A DNA stretch of 27,633 nucleotides from a virus (IMGVR_UViG_2630968911_000005); one strand, 5' to 3'. Shown: positions 2,231 to 24,327, counted from the stretch's first letter. Notes: generated from the sequence alone by a model not told the origin. A program made the numbers and translations.

Positions 2231-4111
2231 TCACCTTAATTGGGTGATCTGCCGTCTCGCCAGTTTCATTATCGCTATTGTGATGCTGATTGCCGCCAGT
2301 GTTCTCCTTGTGTGGATGTTCAGCGCCTTCCATTTCCTCCGGATCATCTCCTGAACTTCAACCTGATACTCTTCATCGAATGTTTCTTGGTATGTTGCGT
2401 CGCCCATCACCGCGCCACAATCAGGGCAGTTGCCGCCGCCGGTCTGACCGCAGGCGGTGCAGGCTTTTTCCACTTCCTGTTGCGCCACTGGTTCAGGCTG
2501 TTTCGTTTCTGGCTCGTTTTGTAACGCATTTGGACTGTTTTGTTCCGCTTTTTGGTAGTTCCGTTCCGATTCATGCTGGTTCTGGTTCACAGAATCGCGG
2601 GTCTGGAGCCCCTTAACCCATTTCGGATCATTCGGGTCACTAATCCCTTCAACAAATTCACCACGTGATGCAGCAAGCAACTTATCGGCGTCAGGCTGGC
2701 TGATATTGGCTGCCTGCATAATTTTGTTTACTTCGTCAGCGGTAACTTTTATCGGCTCTGGTTGTTCTGAATCTTCAGCGGTATCTACATTTTGCGGTAA
2801 GCCCGTGTATGTGCCATTTTTTCGGGCAAAATATTCTTCTTTTGTGATTTCAGTGGCGCCAGCAGCCAGTGCCTTATCCAGACCAGAGAGTTTGTTTGCG
2901 CGACCGTATTTTTCTCCGTCCTTATCTGCGAAGAGGAAATAGAACGGCCCCTCACGCTCTACAGATGGTTCAGCTTCCGGCGCGGTTTCATTTTTTGGGA
3001 TATCAGATACCTCAGTTTCCACTGCATCAGTTTGTGTTTCTGATGACTGGAGAACATCAACAGTGCCCAGGTCTGTTTCTTCATTCTCAAACACGCCCTT
3101 TGTCGTCAGGTATTCGCAGATATATTTGTTCAGTGCTACGGGATCTTTGTGAATGTCGATCGGACGCTCACGGACAAGGCCAAAAATAGTTTGGCGGTCG
3201 TAGCGAAGGGCATCAGGCTGTTTGCGCATTGATGCCGAGATACGCTTCCAGTCTTCGCGGTCGTTGTCGATAACTTCTTTTTTTGCCCAGCGATGGATGC
3301 TGCCGTCAATGTTTCCGGCATCCACATCACTAGGCCAGAGAGCGTAGGCCAGTTCGTCATCCAGTGTTTTCCATGTCTGCTTGTATTCGCGATGAATGGC
3401 AGCAATGACCGGGCTGATTTTTCCTGTTGAATTTTCAGTGTACTGTTGATTGGCTCTGGCGCGGGCGAGATCAACAACAGACGTGTATTTTCCGGTTTCC
3501 TTGCGTTCACCTTCGCGACGTTTTTTCCAGATGCGCATCTCTGCCTGAATTTCGGGCCATTTAGCACCAGGAATACATTTATGCTTAACCCACCCAATGG
3601 CGTGCAACTTAAGCTCCGGATACATGGCGTTAACTTCTGGCATTTTCATCAACGCTTCAACGATATGTCCGTCGAATGTTGCCATGTCTTCCTGCAACAA
3701 TTCCTGTGCGCTAATAACCATATCAACGGTGATGTTTTCACATGTGTCGAACTTAACCATGACAGCGTTCTGTACTTCAGGGGCCAGCTTGTCAAAAGTG
3801 ACGTTCATCGGATCGGATTCAGTCTCAACCGGGACAAAAGAAGCAGACTCCTCATCCCAGCGGTTTTCCTGCATATATTCAGCATCCCATGAATCGAGGG
3901 CAGGGCGGGGTATGCCAGGTTTATCCTCGCAGACAATAAATTTATAAGCGCAGTCCTGAGCAGCCGGATAATGTTCCAGGAATTGCCAGTGAAATTTTGC
4001 TCGAGCACGGCGTTCGTCGCCAGCTTCAATGGCTGTGGCTACAGCCACAGCGCCTTCTTCCCTTGTTGCCAGTTCGTCAGGAATAGCGGCGCAAATAAAG
4101 ACTTTACTCAT
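2231..4111 (-). CDS. Large early-operon protein, RecE (exonuclease VIII) N-terminal-region-like, ending in a Cys4 zinc ribbon; no recognisable nuclease domain
   Basis: Long ORF; ATG at 4109-4111 (MSKVF...) is preceded by GAGG 9 nt upstream. Internal segment KLLAASRGEFVEGISDPNDPKWVKGLQTRD resembles RecE as recalled. C-terminus has CTACGQTGGGNCPDCG. The acidic central region is low complexity. Confidence 0.6.
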   Translation of the reverse strand: MSKVFICAAIPDELATREEGAVAVATAIEAGDERRARAKFHWQFLEHYPAAQDCAYKFIVCEDKPGIPRPALDSWDAEYMQENRWDEESASFVPVETESDPMNVTFDKLAPEVQNAVMVKFDTCENITVDMVISAQELLQEDMATFDGHIVEALMKMPEVNAMYPELKLHAIGWVKHKCIPGAKWPEIQAEMRIWKKRREGERKETGKYTSVVDLARARANQQYTENSTGKISPVIAAIHREYKQTWKTLDDELAYALWPSDVDAGNIDGSIHRWAKKEVIDNDREDWKRISASMRKQPDALRYDRQTIFGLVRERPIDIHKDPVALNKYICEYLTTKGVFENEETDLGTVDVLQSSETQTDAVETEVSDIPKNETAPEAEPSVEREGPFYFLFADKDGEKYGRANKLSGLDKALAAGATEITKEEYFARKNGTYTGLPQNVDTAEDSEQPEPIKVTADEVNKIMQAANISQPDADKLLAASRGEFVEGISDPNDPKWVKGLQTRDSVNQNQHESERNYQKAEQNSPNALQNEPETKQPEPVAQQEVEKACTACGQTGGGNCPDCGAVMGDATYQETFDEEYQVEVQEMIRRKWKALNIHTRRTLAAISITIAIMKLARRQITQLR

Positions 4112-4203
4112 TTGTTTTAACCTCATGACAGATTTAAGGATGAACAAATCCCTGCCATTGCTGGCATATAAGAATGAAACCGGATATTTATTACGGAACT
4201 GTT

Positions 4204-4395
4204 TTAAAGACCTGCCGGGATTTCGATATTATCCTGGTGAATAACTTTATCGACCGGGTAACAGTTACCGGGAATTTTCTGTTCGGTTGCTGCAGTCATA
4301 CACTCCTGCATTGTCCTGTGAACACTGACTGCAATATCAACTGGCTCTCCGGAAACAAGAAAAACTGTCAGAACAAGCACAAATGCTGAATTCAT
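4204..4395 (-). CDS. Small hypothetical protein with N-terminal signal-peptide-like hydrophobic segment
   Basis: 63-aa ORF (MNSAFVLVLTVFLVSG...). Its ATG overlaps the stop of the upstream gene (ATGA, 4392-4395), suggesting translational coupling. Confidence 0.5.
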   Translation of the reverse strand: MNSAFVLVLTVFLVSGEPVDIAVSVHRTMQECMTAATEQKIPGNCYPVDKVIHQDNIEIPAGL

Positions 4396-6325: not shown

Positions 6326-6659
6326 ATACAGCGAACTCCATTGGTTTAGTTGGATATTTACTGTGCTGGACAAAAACGGTTTGCGGGGAAATCTTAGTTA
6401 AGTAGAATGACTGCGGGTGCTTGAGGCTATCTGCCTCGGGCATGGACACCAACGGCAGATAGAGAAAAGCCCCAGTTAACATTACGCGTCCTGCAAGACG
6501 CTTAACATTAATCTGAGGCCAATTTCATGCTAGACACATGTAGGTTAGCCTCTTACGTGCCGAAAGGCACGGAGAAGCAGGCTATTGTTAACACCAAGCT
6601 GTAATGTCCCCTTTGAACCATTCTAAAATGTCCCCAGACAATTCTCTGGGGGATTTTTC

Positions 6660-12102: not shown

Positions 12103-13152
12103 GTGCGGGTATTACTTAGACCTGTTCTGGTGCCTGAGCTTGGGCTGGTGGTCCTTAAGCCGGGCCGTGAATCCATACAGATATTTCATAATCCTCGAGT
12201 GCTGGTGGAACCGGAACCAAAAAGCATGCGTAATCTGCCATCCGGAGTCGTTCCTGCCGTTCGCCAGCCGCTGGCGGAAGACAAAACATTGCTGCCGTTT
12301 TTTAGTAACGAACGGGTGATTCGTGCTGCTGGCGGCGTTGGCGCATTGTCCGACTGGCTATTACGTCATGTTACATCCTGCCAGTGGCCTAATGGCGATT
12401 ACCATCACACTGAAACAGTCATTCACCGTTATGGTACCGGCGCAATGGTGTTGTGCTGGCACTGCGACAACCAACTGCGTGACCAGACATCGGAATCACT
12501 GGAGCTGCTTGCTCAACAAAATCTGACAGCATGGGTGATTGACGTCATCCGTCACGCAATAAGCGGTACGCAGGAGCGGGAATTATCTTTGGCTGAATTA
12601 TCCTGGTGGGCGGTCTGCAATCAGGTGGTGGATGCACTACCTGAGGCTGTATCGCGTCGTTCGCTGGGATTACCAGCGGAAAAAATCTGCTCGGTGTACC
12701 GCGAAAGCGACATCGTACCGGGAGAGCAGACCGCCACCAGCATATTGAAACAACGCACAAAAAATCTTGCACCGTTGCCTTACGCCCACCAGCAACAAAA
12801 ATCACCACAGGAAAAGACGGTGGTAAGCATCACCGTTGATCCAGAGTCTCCGGAATCTTTCATGAAGCTGCCTAAACGTCGCCGCTGGGTTAAGGAGAAA
12901 TACACACGTTGGGTTAAGACACAGCCGTGTGCTTGCTGCGGTATGCCAGCCGACGATCCGCATCATCTGATTGGTCACGGGCAGGGCGGAATGGGAACAA
13001 AAGCACATGATCTCTTTGTGTTGCCTTTGTGCAGAAAGCATCACAACGAGCTGCATACGGATACAGTGGCATTTGAAGATAAGTATGGCTCCCAACTGGA
13101 GCTGATATTTCGTTTTATCGATCGCGCGCTGGCAATTGGCGTACTGGCGTAA
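12103..13152 (+). CDS. ydfU: YdfU-like protein with C-terminal HNH/zinc-binding-like motif
   Basis: GTG start at 12103 with GGAGG 5 nt upstream gives 349 aa. C-terminus has CACCGMPADDPHHLIGHGQGG ... CRKHHNELH. Confidence 0.8.
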   Translation: MRVLLRPVLVPELGLVVLKPGRESIQIFHNPRVLVEPEPKSMRNLPSGVVPAVRQPLAEDKTLLPFFSNERVIRAAGGVGALSDWLLRHVTSCQWPNGDYHHTETVIHRYGTGAMVLCWHCDNQLRDQTSESLELLAQQNLTAWVIDVIRHAISGTQERELSLAELSWWAVCNQVVDALPEAVSRRSLGLPAEKICSVYRESDIVPGEQTATSILKQRTKNLAPLPYAHQQQKSPQEKTVVSITVDPESPESFMKLPKRRRWVKEKYTRWVKTQPCACCGMPADDPHHLIGHGQGGMGTKAHDLFVLPLCRKHHNELHTDTVAFEDKYGSQLELIFRFIDRALAIGVLA

Positions 13153-13165
13153 GTGGAGAACGAGC

Positions 13166-13918
13166 ATGAACCTTGAAGCCTTACCAAAATATTACTCCCC
13201 AAAATCTCCAAAATTGAGCGATGACGCTCCAGCGACAGGCACCGGTTGTTTAACAATTACGGATGTAATGGCAGCGCAGGGGATGGTGCAGTCGAAAGCA
13301 CCACTTGGGTTGGCCTTATTTCTGGCAAAAGTTGGTGTTCAGGACCCTCAGTTTGCGATTGAAGGCCTGCTAAATTACGCGATGGCACTGGATAACCCGA
13401 CATTGAACAAATTGAGTGAAGAAATCCGGTTACAGATTATTCCTTACCTCGTGAGTTTTGCCTTTGCTGATTACTCCAGGTCTGCGGCAAGTAAGGCTCG
13501 CTGTGAGCATTGTTCAGGTACGGGATTTTATAATGTATTGCGCGAAGTGGTGAAACACTACAGACGCGGGGAATCTGTAATCAAGGAAGAATGGGTGAAG
13601 GAACTATGTCAGCATTGCCATGGTAAGGGCGAAGCCAGCACAGCGTGCAGAGGGTGTAAGGGTAAAGGGATTGTTCTGGATGAAAAAAGAACCCGGTTTC
13701 ATGGCGTACCGGTATATAAGATTTGTGGGCGTTGTAATGGAAACCGGTTTAGTCGTTTACCGACCACGCTGGCACGACGTCATGTCCAGAAGCTGGTACC
13801 AGACCTGACCGATTATCAGTGGTATAAGGGGTATGCGGACGTCATTGGTAAACTGGTAACAAAGTGCTGGCAGGAAGAAGCATACGCGGAAGCGCAATTG
13901 AGGAAGGTGACGAGATAA
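13166..13918 (+). CDS. quuQ: Late-gene antiterminator Q (lambdoid Q family)
   Basis: 250 aa from ATG 13166 (GGAG upstream). Contains zinc-finger-like CEHCSGTG / CQHCHGKG / CRGCKGKG. Followed by a promoter plus terminator unit. Confidence 0.85.
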   Translation: MNLEALPKYYSPKSPKLSDDAPATGTGCLTITDVMAAQGMVQSKAPLGLALFLAKVGVQDPQFAIEGLLNYAMALDNPTLNKLSEEIRLQIIPYLVSFAFADYSRSAASKARCEHCSGTGFYNVLREVVKHYRRGESVIKEEWVKELCQHCHGKGEASTACRGCKGKGIVLDEKRTRFHGVPVYKICGRCNGNRFSRLPTTLARRHVQKLVPDLTDYQWYKGYADVIGKLVTKCWQEEAYAEAQLRKVTR

Positions 13919-13949
13919 ATGATTTTTGCTGAAGATGGCGACATGATGT

Positions 13950-13978
13950 TTGCATTTTTCAAAAAATATGGATAAAAT
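13950..13978 (+). promoter_or_regulatory. PR'-like late promoter (TTGCAT-N17-TAAAAT) downstream of Q
   Basis: Near-consensus sigma-70 hexamers with 17-bp spacer; terminator about 50 nt downstream, as in lambda PR'/qut/tR'. Confidence 0.5.
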
Positions 13979-14023
13979 TTTTTCAACGATGGGCTTTGTA
14001 TACCCGACGTTAAGAAAAAGTAG

Positions 14024-14054
14024 AAAACCCGCTGATGAGCGGGTTTTGTGCTTT
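14024..14054 (+). terminator. Rho-independent terminator (tR'-like) ending a short leader transcript
   Basis: AAAACCCGCT-GATG-AGCGGGTTTTGTGCTTT: 6-bp GC stem followed by a T-run. Confidence 0.6.
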
Positions 14055-14339
14055 AAATGGGGCAATGGTAATGTTGAATCTCATCCCGGGACTCATGTCT
14101 GTTAACTTATTATTTAGCTGGTGACTTGGTTATTTGCCTGATGTTTAAAATGTTTTCTTCCAGTACAATGTCCCTAAACACAATGAGTCTGCTTATTATA
14201 TTATTAGCAGAGCTATTACGGCCAAAGTACAGCATAAGCTTTTAAAGCCAATCAACCAGTCATCAAGACAGACGGGGTTATTCATAAAAACTCTCCATGT
14301 GTGATCCGATGGGGCCTGAAATTAAAGCTTTAATATAGC

Positions 14340-14552
14340 TCATGAAAGGTAAACATTGGCAGCTGAAGGGCCACGCAGACCATTTATCCGGCAAAATTCC
14401 ACGCGTAATCCGGTGGTAATTTCTTCTGCATCGCGGAGATTGAGCGCTGAAACATGAAGCTGGACATCGATACGACCATCGGATGGGGTGATAAGACCCT
14501 TGCCGCTTTTGCCGTCAAAGGTTTTGACAATTCCTGTCATTTTACGGGACAA
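14340..14552 (-). CDS. cspF: Cold-shock protein family member CspF
   Basis: 70-aa cold-shock-domain protein ([26 protein letters not shown]...). Confidence 0.9.
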
Positions 14553-14852
14553 AAAAATTCCTTAATACTGATAACTTGGCGCACTATACACACGTTCCTG
14601 AAGAAAGCTATAGTTTTTTGATGGGGTTGAAGATGGCTGGATGTCTAAAATAAACATTGCTTCATATGTTCAACTATGCGTTAATGATTGCGTCGGTTTG
14701 AAGAACAGACGATATACGAAGTAGTTTACTAAAGCAGTTCTCATTTCAGGTGTTATTCACTTATTCCTTCTTTGAGTCTCTCCAATTAAGTACGAAGTCG
14801 TTTCTGTTATGCAAACCATTTATGCCGAAAGGCTCAAGTTAAGGAATGTAGA

Positions 14853-15068
14853 ATGTCAAATAAAATGACTGGTTTAGTAAAATGGTTTAACGCTGATAAA
14901 GGTTTCGGCTTTATTTCTCCTGTTGATGGTAGTAAAGATGTGTTTGTGCATTTTTCTGCGATTCAGAATGATAATTATCGAACCTTATTTGAAGGTCAAA
15001 AGGTTACCTTCTCTATAGAGAGTGGTGCTAAAGGTCCTGCAGCAGCAAATGTCATCATTACTGATTAA
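14853..15068 (+). CDS. cspB: Cold-shock protein CspB
   Basis: 71-aa product with RNP motifs (KGFGFI, VFVHF). Long AT-rich 5' leader upstream. Confidence 0.92.
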
Positions 15069-15347
15069 AATTCATCGCTCGTCTGTATACGATAACGAAG
15101 AAGGCTGATGCCTGAGTAGAGATACGGACAGAGTAGTGAATATTGGATCTCTTTAATAAAAAGTAAGGAGGTCCAATACATGAAACAATGGCTAGCATAT
15201 TTGGCAAAATCTTAATCAGGAAAAGTATGCTAACCATTGTGGTGAAGTGCAGGTTTGCTGCATGAATAGTTTTACAGCAGAAGCTAACTGCTGGCATGGC
15301 AAAACAAAGTGCGTAAGTGGATGACTCCCACAAAAAGCACCACAATC

Positions 15348-15375
15348 TCAAACCCGCTCAGGCGGGTTTTTTATT
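15348..15375. terminator. Bidirectional rho-independent terminator between cspB and ynfU
   Basis: AAACCCGC-TCAG-GCGGGTTTTTTATT: GC stem flanked by an A-tract and a T-tract. Confidence 0.6.
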
Positions 15376-15431
15376 ATCTGCTTTAAATATATTATTAAAA
15401 TATAAAAAATACTTGTTACTAATAAAATCAA

Positions 15432-15602
15432 TCAGGCTACAGCTTTAAGATTTGTCTGGAATACTTTGTTGCAATGAGGGCAGATCAAAAGGGCACCTTT
15501 TTGTACTCTTGAAAAACTGTGTTCTGACTCTTGGGTGCAGTTTGGGCAGGAACATTTAACGAGATAATTACGGCGTGATTTTGAGTTTTTACGTTCTGAC
15601 AT
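15432..15602 (-). CDS. ynfU: Small zinc-ribbon protein YnfU-like (56 aa)
   Basis: MSERKNSKSRRNYLVKCSCPNCTQESEHSFSRVQKGALLICPHCNKVF... has two CxxC-type pairs. The ORF track begins 17 codons upstream. Confidence 0.65.
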   Translation of the reverse strand: MSERKNSKSRRNYLVKCSCPNCTQESEHSFSRVQKGALLICPHCNKVFQTNLKAVA

Positions 15603-15821
15603 AGGCTTTTCCTGTATAAATGGCCGTATACAGTACACTAAATATGAAAACATTTCTCGTATTATTATTTTATATATGACTTTCTTTCAAAATAATTACC
15701 CACATTTTTAATGTGTATGTTTTTTTAGCGCCGTTGAGAACAACGTGTGCTGTCAAAACTACCCCGTAGACTCCGATCTTTTCAAACATATTGCACCATC
15801 CGTGTACATCGGGGTGAGGAT

Positions 15822-16037
15822 ATGAAATCAATGGATAAGTTAACAACAGGTGTTGCCTATGGCACATCGGCGGGTAATGCTGGTTTCTGGGCATTGCAGT
15901 TACTCGATAAAGTAACTCCGTCACAGTGGGCTGCAATCGGTGTGCTGGGTAGCCTGGTTTTTGGCCTGCTGACGTATCTGACAAATCTTTATTTCAAGAT
16001 TAAAGAAGACAGGCGTAAGGCTGCGAGAGGAGAGTAA
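15822..16037 (+). CDS. essQ: Phage-21-type pinholin (S21-like), dual-start motif MKSMDK
   Basis: 71 aa, [26 protein letters not shown]...[15 protein letters not shown]; resembles S21 pinholin as recalled. RBS GGGGTGAGGA upstream. Confidence 0.88.
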
Positions 16038-16041
16038 TCCA

Positions 16042-16349
16042 ATGACTCAAGACTATGAACTGGTTGTGAAAGGAGTCCGTAATTTTGAGAATAAAGTTAC
16101 GGTAACTGTAGCCTTACAGGACAAAGAACGCTTTGACGGTGAAATTTTTGACCTGGATGTCGCCATGGACCGTGTTGAAGGAGCTGCGCTGGAGTTTTAT
16201 GAGGCAGCAGCCAGAAGGAGCGTCCGGCAAGTCTTCCTGGAAGTAGCAGAAAAATTGTCAGAAAAAGTTGAGTCTTATCTGCAGCATCAGTACTCCTTTA
16301 AGATTGAAAATCCTGCCAATAAGCACGAGCGTCCTCATCATAAATATCT

Positions 16350-16353
<4 letters not shown>
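16042..16353 (+). CDS. ydfR: YdfR-like protein of unknown function between holin and endolysin
   Basis: 103-aa ORF; its stop overlaps the endolysin start (ATGA). Confidence 0.8.
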
Positions 16354-17377
<1,024 letters not shown>

Positions 17378-17739
17378 GGTAATATTAAATCGGAACATTT
17401 ACATCGCGGAATGTAAAATTTAAATAAAAAGGACTCTTCCATGAGCCAAAATTCCTGAAATCTTAAGGGTAAGATAAAAGGTCTTAATCAGAATGACACG
17501 TTTTATTAATAAATAAAGCTATTCTTTCATTGCTGTGTTTTTCTTTACAAAAGTAATCCTTGCTATGGGTGGTTAATCATGCGTTAATGGTGTTCTGGTT
17601 TGTTACAAATTTATCTGAAGCAGTCATTGTTATAATTTTATTATTTGTACCTCTTGAGATTTCCTTGTTGGTTTTTCTCTCTGATATTTTTTTTCGGACC
17701 ATTCTGCCCAAGGGCTAATTTCTTCAAAAGGTAATAATT

Positions 17740-17952
17740 ATGTCTAACAAAATGACTGGTTTAGTGAAATGGTTTAACCCTGAAAAAGGTTTTGGTTTCA
17801 TCACGCCGAAAGATGGCAGCAAAGATGTGTTTGTCCATTTCTCAGCAATTCAGAGCAACGATTTCAAAACATTAACTGAGAATCAGGAAGTTGAATTTGG
17901 TATTGAGAACGGACCTAAAGGTCCTGCCGCTGTTCATGTAGTGGCGCTTTGA
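17740..17952 (+). CDS. cspI: Cold-shock protein CspI
   Basis: 70-aa cold-shock-domain protein ([34 protein letters not shown]...). RBS AAGGTAA. About 350-nt AT-rich leader. Confidence 0.92.
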
Positions 17953-18156
17953 GGTAGACAATATTACAAACCATATTCACTTTAGATGCCCGTGTTGTCA
18001 TGGTTCCCAGTATAGAACATCATCTTTTGATGTTTCTGACATGAATCCTTTCGGGGCAAAATGTATCTTTTGTAAATCAATGATGATTACATTTGATAAT
18101 ATTTCACAATACTTAAATGCCAGCCGTCTGTCGTTGGATTTAAAAAAGTGAAAATG

Positions 18157-18180
18157 AAGGCTCCTTCGGGAGCTTTTTTG
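18157..18180 (+). terminator. Rho-independent terminator with UUCG tetraloop downstream of cspI
   Basis: AAGGCTCC-TTCG-GGAGC followed by TTTTTT. Confidence 0.55.
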
Positions 18181-18223
18181 CTTGGTGTCTATTCGATGGA
18201 TACTCACATACTACGGTAACATC

Positions 18224-18454
18224 ATGAAAAAAATCATAGTTTTTTTTAACTCTGAACCAGCAGTGGTAGTGCCAGCGATGACTGGAGTTAACACCATCAT
18301 GCGTGAATATCCAAATGGCGAAAAAACACACCTTACTGTAATGGCCGCAGGGTTTCCATCTCTGACCGGAGATCATAAAGTCATTTATGTAGCCGCGGAT
18401 CGACATGTTACTTCAGAAGAAATTCTGGAAGCAGCAATAAGGCTCTTGAGTTGA
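18224..18454 (+). CDS. Hypothetical protein (start uncertain; the K-12 neighbour at this position, ynfN, is shorter)
   Basis: ORF MKKIIVFFNSEPAVVVPAMTGVNTIMREYPNGEKTHLTVMAAG.... Alternative ATG at 18299 has GGAG upstream. Confidence 0.45.
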   Translation: MKKIIVFFNSEPAVVVPAMTGVNTIMREYPNGEKTHLTVMAAGFPSLTGDHKVIYVAADRHVTSEEILEAAIRLLS

Positions 18455-23752: not shown

Positions 23753-24327
23753 TGGCATTCAGAATGAGTGAACAACCACGGACCATAACAATTTATAATC
23801 TGCTGGCCGGAACTAATGAATTTATTGGTGAAGGTGATGCATATATTCCGCCTCATACAGGTCTGCCAGCAAACAGTACCGATATTGCACCGCCAGATAT
23901 TCCGGCTGGCTTCGTGGCTGTTTTCAACAGTGATGAGTCATCGTGGCATCTCGTTGAAGATCATCGGGGTAAAACGGTTTATGACGTGGCTTCCGGCGAC
24001 GCGTTATTTATTTCTGAACTCGGTCCGTTACCGAAAAATGTTACCTGGTTATCGCCGGAAGGGGAGTTTCAGAAGTGGAACGGCACAGCCTGGGTGAAGG
24101 ATACGGAAGCAGAAAAACTGTTCCGGATCCGGGAGGCGGAAGAAACAAAAAACAACCTGATGCAGGTAGCCAGTGAGCATATTGCGCCGCTTCAGGATGC
24201 TGCAGATCTGGAAATTGCAACGGAGGAAGAAATCTCGTTGCTGGAAGCATGGAAAAAGTATCGGGTATTGCTGAACCGTGTTGATACGTCAACTGCACAG
24301 GATATTGAATGGCCAGCACTGCCGTAG
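23752..24327 (+). CDS. tfaQ: Tail fibre assembly protein (Tfa)
   Basis: 191-aa ORF overlapping the stf stop (TAATG). N-terminus [26 protein letters not shown]. Confidence 0.85.

Follow-up and report, generated by a model that had tools for sequence, protein, structure and literature searches.

We analysed a viral DNA sequence of 27,633 nucleotides (nt) (IMGVR_UViG_2630968911_000005; hereafter the window, numbered from the first letter of its + strand) in which a promoter, a pause element and a terminator directly follow the antiterminator gene quuQ and are separated from the lysis genes by other genes, referred to here as cargo. The 3.3 kb around the late promoter and the cargo are 100% identical to many Escherichia coli chromosomes, and window 12729-18246 is identical to MG1655, that is, the region is the cryptic prophage Qin of E. 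coli K-12. Window position x equals position 1656407 - x of MG1655 (U00096.3), and the + strand of the window is the - strand of MG1655. The genes are, in order, ydfU, ydfT/quuQ, ynfS, cspF, cspB, ynfU, essQ, ydfR, rrrQ, rzpQ and cspI (Table 1). Pfam confirmed all of them except the tiny ynfS. As the evidence stands, 13950-14054 is probably a lambda-type late regulatory module of Qin that drives the lysis genes across exchangeable cargo.

The late promoter consists of a -35 element TTGCAT (13950-13955), a 17-bp spacer (TTTTCAAAAAATATGGA) and a -10 element TAAAAT (13973-13978), and is predicted to begin 32 nt 3' of the Q stop codon (13918). It aligns hexamer for hexamer with TTGACT-N17-TAAATT of lambda, and in both promoters six bases and then AACGATGGG follow. 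In Qin this 9-mer lies at 13985-13993, exactly 6 nt past the -10 element, and is identical to lambda pR' +1 to +9. Its parts are a -10-like AACGAT (+1 to +6) and GGG (+7 to +9). In lambda, sigma70 re-binds the -10-like AACGAT, GGG is discriminator-like, and both elements cause the pause at +16/+17 where Q loads (PMC5001585). For Qin, we place the predicted +1 at 13985 and the predicted pause at about 13997-14001. The composite promoter/pause pattern occurred once in the window, with 0 expected, and in 0 of 100 shuffled sequences even when three mismatches were allowed.

The spacer, which is the presumed Q-binding region, differs from that of lambda, as expected for a Q that is only 33% identical. 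Eight relatives found by similarity search share the -35 core GCAT and the spacer as far as TATGG without a difference, and their spacer is unchanged save for its last base. We also collected 120 IMG/VR contigs by means of a 20-mer from the promoter spacer. Being selected in this way, they are uninformative on the conservation of that sequence; AACGATGGG is nearly invariant among them. The spacing of AACGATGGG, the conservation of the module beside Q and an in vivo 3' end at 14051 establish that the site is non-random. One IMG/VR UViG (L094, promoter at locus position 3779, - strand) is a natural hybrid: a Q of the QuuQ type (93.6% identical) with its promoter passes, at or next to AACGATGGG, into the 6S RNA, tR', S and R region of lambda (95.9% identical over 1.6 kb). 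This points to the pause element as a joint at which Q-specific modules recombine with downstream ones.

QuuQ belongs to the Q-lambda family (Pfam PF03589, E 4e-54) and additionally matches PF00684. It carries an extra zinc-finger region of the DnaJ type (CXXCXGXG), in which four CXXC(X)G motifs match the central zinc-finger domain of DnaJ and which accounts for its length (250 versus 207 amino acids in lambda Q). Q genes that are 90-94% identical were found in SfV, mEp460, Ayreon, 118970_sal3, fifteen Stx2c-converting phages and many prophages; QuuQ shares 92-100% identity with Q of mEp460, Stx2c phages and PhiR42_1. Upstream of the gene, a further 3' end at window ~11835 (+) (MG1655 1644572(-)) was listed in all three conditions of the transcript 3'-end data described below. 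This end falls immediately before ydfU, where a small annotated open reading frame (ORF) begins, and may bear on the question of whether transcription of Q ever occurs in K-12.

The terminator is formed by a GC-rich hairpin with a 10-bp stem (14024-14047) and a T-rich tail on the + strand, TTTTGTGCTTT, which ends at 14054. The homologous hairpin is annotated as a terminator in the records of SfV and Ayreon. For in vivo 3' ends, we turned to the Term-seq tables of Adams et al. 2021 (Supplementary file 1, PMC7815308). There, a 3' end classed as 'orphan', 1642356(-), corresponds to window 14051(+), four bases past the stem, and the sequence printed beside it is the terminator hairpin. It appears in the lists of all three conditions (scores 103591, 55368 and 123305), so RNA of the late strand ends at this hairpin in uninduced K-12. 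Since this end is 66 nt past the predicted +1, a start upstream on the same strand is implied; provided that the predicted start holds, the RNA would be about 67 nt long (13985-14051). An earlier note on this DNA, made from the sequence by itself, had placed a promoter and, downstream of it, a terminator right after Q, as in lambda. The Term-seq end supports the terminator, and the geometry together with AACGATGGG bears out the likeness to pR'.

Folding of the 72-nt predicted transcript 13985-14056 gave a 5' hairpin and the terminator hairpin, with a minimum free energy of -30.4 kcal/mol (z -6.4). In 19 variants of the 5' hairpin (13985-14011), 98.7% of cells pair, with one-sided changes only, which is no better than in shuffles. 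When the leader and terminator hairpins were subjected to a covariation test, 94% of cells paired versus 27-58% in slid controls, again no better than in column shuffles. The 5' hairpin is thus compatible with the data, to which covariation adds no statistical support because its 5' side is fixed. The 3'-side changes in the 19 variants all keep pairing, via G-U or U-A. Leaders of the Qin, SfV and lambda types alike start with AACG(A), for which a (U)CGUU further downstream is a possible pairing partner; in lambda the counterpart spans pR' +1 to +23, and the resulting 5' hairpin includes the pause-element sequence. Three contigs (L112, L125 and L036) have the 3' half of the terminator hairpin replaced (..CCCGCCATCAAGTAGGTATTTTG.., ~55-70 nt past the predicted +1). 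Their cargo junction lies inside the terminator loop, and the hairpin appears disrupted. The hairpin at 14024-14054 also has a T tract on the - strand. It is a candidate bidirectional terminator, which could end cspF-ynfS transcription before Q as well, and no - strand 3' end was found here among the Term-seq entries listed.

Alignment to related phages delimits the cargo on both sides. Homology to relatives (SfV, mEp460, Ayreon, Stx2c phages and prophages) runs through promoter, pause element and terminator and stops at 14047-14054; in 415 phage records, the homology around the holin sets in between 15794 and 15831, no more than 28 nt ahead of its ATG. These two junctions make 14055-15793 a discrete block, and the second means that there is no conserved holin promoter. 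The alignments indicate that the promoter/pause/terminator module belongs with the Q gene and travels with it across unrelated downstream genes, and that 14055-15793 belongs to a set of at least eight alternative cargo blocks at a hot spot, among them blocks with a DNA methylase, with stx2 or with hardly any content.

In 83 of the 120 IMG/VR contigs, the downstream lysis gene could be located. Between the promoter and the lysis gene, which is of one of five holin/lysin types, these contigs have 400-4500 nt, and they show at least eight cargo configurations in that interval. Cargo of the cspF-cspB-ynfU kind, followed by a P21-type holin at about +1850 to +1900 from the predicted +1, was found in 37 contigs. 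In 24 others the cargo is a DNA methylase, in some cases accompanied by extra ORFs, and the holin follows at about +1650 or at +2350 to +2400. Eight contigs are nearly devoid of cargo and have the holin at about +400 to +500. Cargo that matched none of the probes precedes a lambda/SfV-type S at about +600 in three contigs and a holin at about +4350 to +4500 in two. In one contig (L060), stx2A starts 357 nt past the -35 element. The Stx2c phage examined carries a 141-amino-acid ORF, a DNA methylase, tRNA-Met, tRNA-Arg and stx2A/B downstream of the module, and in another Stx2c record the holin lies ~8.7 kb beyond it. A truly empty site was not seen among the relatives compared. The earlier note had described the cold-shock genes as inserted between the late promoter/terminator and the lysis genes; the separation is real, but 'inserted' is better replaced by 'alternative cassette'.

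The order Q-cspF(-)-cspB(+)-holin recurs in phages 2H10 (a species of the International Committee on Taxonomy of Viruses), Tritos, HannyBb, PhiR42_1 and PhiR63_1, the cargo of which is 96-100% identical to that of the window. The csp block is whole in PhiR42_1, HannyBb, PhiR63_1 and 2H10 and partial in Tritos, which lacks ~14092-14349, and in contig L085, where a deletion between ATGGGG repeats has removed all of ynfS-cspF. These two variants show the block to be composite. In HannyBb (L006), a Q 93% identical to QuuQ is followed by a diverged promoter/terminator copy, ~1.6 kb of other sequence and the last ~58 nt of a second Q gene. This second Q remnant has an intact Qin-type promoter/terminator and precedes the csp cargo; with two copies, in the regions 2324-2500 and 3979-4228, the late module is duplicated. 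PhiR63_1 has two module matches too. Among complete E. coli genomes, 1,422 of 5,426 (about a quarter) contain the late module. In an exact 20-mer scan with one genome per species, the matches in Escherichia and Shigella are plausible; those in unrelated phyla were taken, uninspected, as chance matches of an AT-rich word.

Table 1. Coordinates of the features around the late module of Qin, as positions in the window.
Feature	Position	Strand	Basis
quuQ/ydfT, late antiterminator Q, 250 amino acids	13166-13918	+	Pfam, RefSeq
Late promoter, pR' equivalent	13950-13978	+	sequence, alignment to lambda
Predicted +1 and sigma70 pause element AACGATGGG	13985-13993	+	identity to lambda pR' +1 to +9
Predicted 5' hairpin of the short leader RNA	13985-14011	+	folding
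tR' equivalent, intrinsic terminator	14024-14054	both (candidate)	scan, folds, Term-seq
Cargo (moron) block, late terminator to lysis cassette	14055-15793		junctions from alignments
ynfS, 29-amino-acid protein, 3' of cspF on the same strand	14196-14285	-	RefSeq b4750
cspF, cold-shock-domain protein	14340-14552	-	Pfam CSD (E 6e-22), annotation
cspB, 5' untranslated region and coding sequence (coding 14853-15068)	14692-15068	+	Rfam, Pfam
Stable hairpin at the major cspB mRNA 3' end	15141-15183	+	fold, Term-seq
GC hairpin (15350-15369) and, on the + strand, TTTTTTATT	15350-15375		scan, folds, Term-seq
ynfU, 56-amino-acid putative zinc-binding protein	15432-15602	-	Pfam PF23499 (E 6e-31), RefSeq b4776
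essQ, P21-type pinholin with MKSM dual-start motif	15822-16037	+	Pfam PF04971, annotation
Lysis cassette essQ-ydfR-rrrQ-rzpQ	15822-17377	+	Pfam PF04971, PF07041, PF00959, PF10721

The lysis cassette continues after essQ with ydfR (DUF1327), rrrQ (phage lysozyme) and rzpQ (DUF2514), in which the lipoprotein gene rzoQ is annotated as embedded. Further Rfam matches above the gathering score are the sok antitoxin by hokD (6415-6586), a cspA-type thermoregulator at cspI (17594-17979) and IS009 (24095-24293). At the borders of the MG1655-identical part, we found one base mismatch at window 12728 and a loss of register from 18247 onward, which points to an indel or a rearrangement there. Both indicate a K-12-like source and not MG1655 itself.

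Late transcription of the cargo would be antisense to cspF and ynfU and sense to cspB. That about 1.8 kb with cspF, cspB and ynfU precede the pinholin had been claimed before and agrees with the coordinates found here, except that ynfS had been overlooked; its protein has been detected by epitope tagging (PMC6001520). cspB begins at ~14692 with a long 5' untranslated region of the cspA thermoregulator type (Rfam RF01766, 158.8 bits over 14692-15084), and its coding sequence matches Pfam CSD at E 1e-31. A Term-seq 3' end falls within this 5' region at 14773, and a weak hairpin with a + strand 3' end at 14219 was listed in one condition. The major cspB mRNA ends, 1641226/1641224(-) (window 15181/15183), have the highest Term-seq scores in the region (0.6-2.5 million). 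They are located 113 nt past the stop codon at the foot of the hairpin 15141-15183, which has 15 bp and no U tract (-18.4 kcal/mol, z -4.8). The dominant cspB end appears to result from processing or from protection by the hairpin, and not from an intrinsic terminator.

Between cspB and the lysis genes, the GC hairpin at 15350-15369 together with TTTTTTATT is a good predicted intrinsic terminator on the + strand. The earlier note had assigned 15348-15375 to cspB as its own terminator. The prediction of a terminator stands, but cspB ends mainly at 15181-15183, and this hairpin is documented solely as the 3' end of ynfU transcripts (Term-seq 1641060(+), window 15347(-)); no + strand 3' end was found at it among the Term-seq entries listed. 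In the lysogen, it likely stops RNA that passes the cspB 3' hairpin before the holin, and likely also stops ynfU transcripts before they enter cspB in antisense. Sub-threshold Rfam matches at this hairpin (isrK, Trp leader, P9) were treated as terminator noise. ynfU itself has a promoter-like site at 15690-15661 (-), TTGAAA-18-AATAAT, with a 10/12 match. In summary, the + strand obstacles past the late terminator are the hairpin and end at 14219, the end at 14773, the ends at 15181/15183, the 15350 hairpin, and head-on transcription from cspF-ynfS and from ynfU.

The abundant cspB 3' ends and the ynfU 3' end are present in uninduced K-12, and the YnfS protein has been detected as well. With its own promoter and terminator, and with prophage expression independent of late transcription, the cargo is of the moron kind. 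The divergent cspF-cspB pair with its intergenic region (14350-14967) is ~77% identical to the chromosomal cspH-cspG pair of nearly all E. coli. There, cspG is followed by ymcF-ymcE-gnsA, in parallel to cspI and ynfQ-ynfR-ynfN-gnsB in Qin. The chromosomal cspH-cspG locus may be a remnant of a Qin-like late region.

The following circuit would fit these findings. Sigma70 RNA polymerase would start at ~13985 and be held a dozen or so nt downstream, where sigma70 re-binds AACGAT plus GGG in the initial transcribed region. Without Q, termination at the hairpin would yield the ~67-nt RNA with its 3' end at 14051. QuuQ is expected to bind the promoter spacer, to join the paused polymerase and to make it terminator-resistant. 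The Q-modified polymerase would then cross ~1.8 kb, that is, ynfS/cspF in antisense, cspB in sense, the hairpins at 15141-15183 and 15350, and ynfU in antisense, before transcription reaches essQ-ydfR-rrrQ-rzpQ and beyond. The late message would include cspB, and antisense RNA to ynfS/cspF and ynfU would be made. The cargo genes would be expressed from their own promoters; since they are fenced by hairpins at both ends, read-out into Q or the lysis genes would not be expected in the lysogen. Three observations lead us to infer read-through to the lysis genes: the order of the genes, the deposited phage genomes that share this layout, and the finding that no holin promoter is conserved. The earlier proposal that Q-antiterminated transcription reads across the cargo to the lysis genes is thus supported by comparative data and published 3' ends, by way of inference.

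Several points weigh against this interpretation. The -10 element TAAAAT matches consensus at 5/6 positions, but the -35 element is poor (3/6, or 4/6 in the TTTGCA/18 register picked by the scanner), so that the earlier term 'near-consensus' is true of the -10 element only. Within 12500-17500, ten 9/12 hexamer matches were found versus 8.7 expected from shuffles. The hexamers alone are no better than chance in this AT-rich stretch, and the promoter call cannot rest on them. No 5' end for the predicted start (MG1655 1642422(-)) was found in the ROSE and RNET-seq supplements. In lambda, a -35-like TTGACT between the -10 element and +1 contributes to Q engagement, as Nickels et al. are said to have found in 2002; in Qin it is not conserved (TTTTTC). 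Given this difference, the details of Q loading may differ from lambda, and an altered engagement would fit a Q with low identity to that of lambda and an extra zinc-finger region. A literature search on the function of quuQ/ydfT found nothing. Since Qin is cryptic, the circuit may never fire in K-12. The status of 2H10, Tritos and HannyBb as infectious, plaque-forming isolates is taken from database records; if it holds, late transcription must be able to cross the csp block. Finally, a genomic SELEX (systematic evolution of ligands by exponential enrichment) study by Shimada et al. 2014 (PMC3946193) lists a constitutive promoter of essQ-ydfR-rrrQ-ydfP with an H-NS mark.

Promoter and terminator of K-12 could by now mainly form a stand-alone gene for a ~67-nt regulatory RNA similar to StxS or 6S, with a vestigial late role, a scenario that we consider unlikely. 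It would fit the 14051 end, which recurs in each of the three growth conditions and scores higher than hokD, and the fold of the RNA, in which an A-rich single-stranded stretch (AAGAAAAAGUAGAAAA) separates the 5' hairpin from the terminator hairpin. The origin of StxS is the same, and its action is mediated by Hfq (PMC7547250). However, searches for target, Hfq-binding or phenotype data on the Qin short RNA found none, Rfam has no family for it, its U tail is short (UUUUG), and the stretch between leader and terminator hairpins varies among relatives. Moreover, a regulatory RNA would be compatible with a functional late module, which deposited phage genomes keep. The specific proposal that the ~67-nt RNA is a constitutive, unannotated small RNA of K-12 with a possible trans-acting role like that of StxS strikes us as quite improbable; the A-rich single-stranded stretch between the hairpins would suit Hfq binding. 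The single-stranded linker 14012-14023 (+) reads UAAGAAAAAGUAGAAAA and contains several A-R-N triplets, the kind bound by the distal face of Hfq. SfV-type relatives have a different linker.

It is very unlikely that the lysis genes depend instead on their own H-NS-silenced sigma70 promoter in the ynfU-essQ spacer (TTTATA-16-AATAAT, 15669-15696) and not on read-through. The promoter listed by Shimada et al. speaks for such a site, our own scan picked the same 15669-15696 hexamers (9/12 match), and minor-sigma SELEX peaks fall in the cspB-essQ spacer. Yet the centre of the RpoD SELEX peak (U00096.2 1639234) corresponds to window ~15197, just past cspB. This leaves 470 nt to the listed hexamers and ~625 nt to the essQ ATG downstream, and the peak has a low intensity of 0.07. 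SELEX-chip carries no strand information, ynfU was not yet annotated at that time, and the AT-rich spot of the listed hexamers also holds a better match (10/12), which is oriented towards ynfU. Furthermore, the spacer 15654-15793 is part of the csp cargo, and homologous holins of other phages are not preceded by it, so it cannot be a general late promoter; a weak extra essQ promoter would not exclude Q control. For a promoter directly upstream of essQ, which had been named beforehand as the finding that would speak against late read-through, the SELEX study thus offers a putative sigma70 candidate on weak evidence.

That the promoter match is fortuitous and the hairpin merely terminates cspF-ynfS on the opposite strand can hardly be upheld: 9/12 matches do occur at chance frequency here and the hairpin has a good - strand T tract, but hairpin and promoter are kept beside Q in phages without cspF, the 9-mer is identical to the lambda pause element at the correct spacing, and the mapped 3' end is on the + strand with none listed on the - strand, so that a role as cspF terminator only was rejected as largely refuted. 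More remote than the small-RNA proposal is a variant in which, at low temperature, transcription from the strong cspB promoter, with antitermination by Csp proteins, would leak past the 15350 hairpin into the lysis genes and couple cold shock to prophage lysis functions.

A late module read across cargo corresponds to the textbook layout of lambdoid phages, as in lambda with pR', tR' and 6S RNA and in Stx phages, where tRNAs and stx lie between tR' and S (PMC6266700, PMC7547250, PMC8065619). Qin shares with lambda a Q of PF03589, the -35/17-bp/-10 geometry, the 6-nt gap to the predicted +1, AACGATGGG, a short RNA made by a terminator and lysis genes downstream. It differs in the sequence and zinc finger of its Q, in the spacer, in the missing TTGACT between -10 and +1, in the position of the terminator (about +40 to +70 versus +194), in the length of the RNA (a predicted ~67 versus 194 nt) and in the distance from terminator to holin (~1.8 kb with four genes versus ~400 nt). 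Like Qin, Stx phages (933W, Sakai Sp5/Sp15 and Stx2c) carry accessory genes between the late terminator and the holin; in these phages the cargo is crossed by Q-modified polymerase, and their lysogens make a short RNA that ends at a terminator. The Q of Stx2c phages shares 94% identity with QuuQ, and their promoter/terminator module is that of Qin. In contrast to Stx phages, Qin has cold-shock cargo and no toxin, and two of its three cargo units are antisense to late transcription. StxS, which belongs with another type of Q, has been shown to be functional; the Qin RNA is not known to have a function. Another short RNA upstream of an antiterminated phage operon, IsrK of Gifsy-1 (cited in PMC7547250), has no sequence relationship to Qin at the late promoter. 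The Rfam isrK model gave a sub-threshold match at 15294-15372 (18 bits versus a gathering score of 50), most likely due to the terminator.

Morons of lambdoid phages, in the concept of Juhala and Hendrix, are units of promoter, gene and terminator that are expressed from the prophage. The Qin cargo resembles them, since cspB has a regulated 5' untranslated region and a predicted terminator, and the block varies between homologous phages at a module boundary. Unlike a simple moron, it is composite, comprises three transcription units on both strands and has the late terminator as one fence. Within K-12, the prophage DLP12 offers a parallel, in which quuD is followed by nmpC (antisense) and then by essD-rrrD-rzpD. 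It has, like Qin, a Q gene, accessory genes including an antisense one and the same type of lysis cassette, but its Q is of a different family (~126 amino acids) and its cargo differs. A layout comparable to DLP12 was found at locus L003, with a lipocalin, YbgA and a helix-turn-helix protein as cargo.

The layout described here is standard for lambda-like phages; it involves no new mechanism, and the gene order was already annotated in K-12. The late promoter/pause/terminator itself appears to be unrecorded: we found no feature annotated under the module in the K-12 RefSeq record or in the listed rows of the 1,422 complete E. coli genomes. A regulatory element to which RefSeq assigns no feature can therefore now be annotated in K-12 and in these 1,422 of 5,426 genomes, and the module explains an 'orphan' Term-seq 3' end. 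cspB and cspF occupy the late-operon slot that holds stx2 in Stx2c phages with an almost identical Q and promoter. K-12 offers a simple model for cargo read-through by this type of Q, of possible relevance to Stx2c expression.

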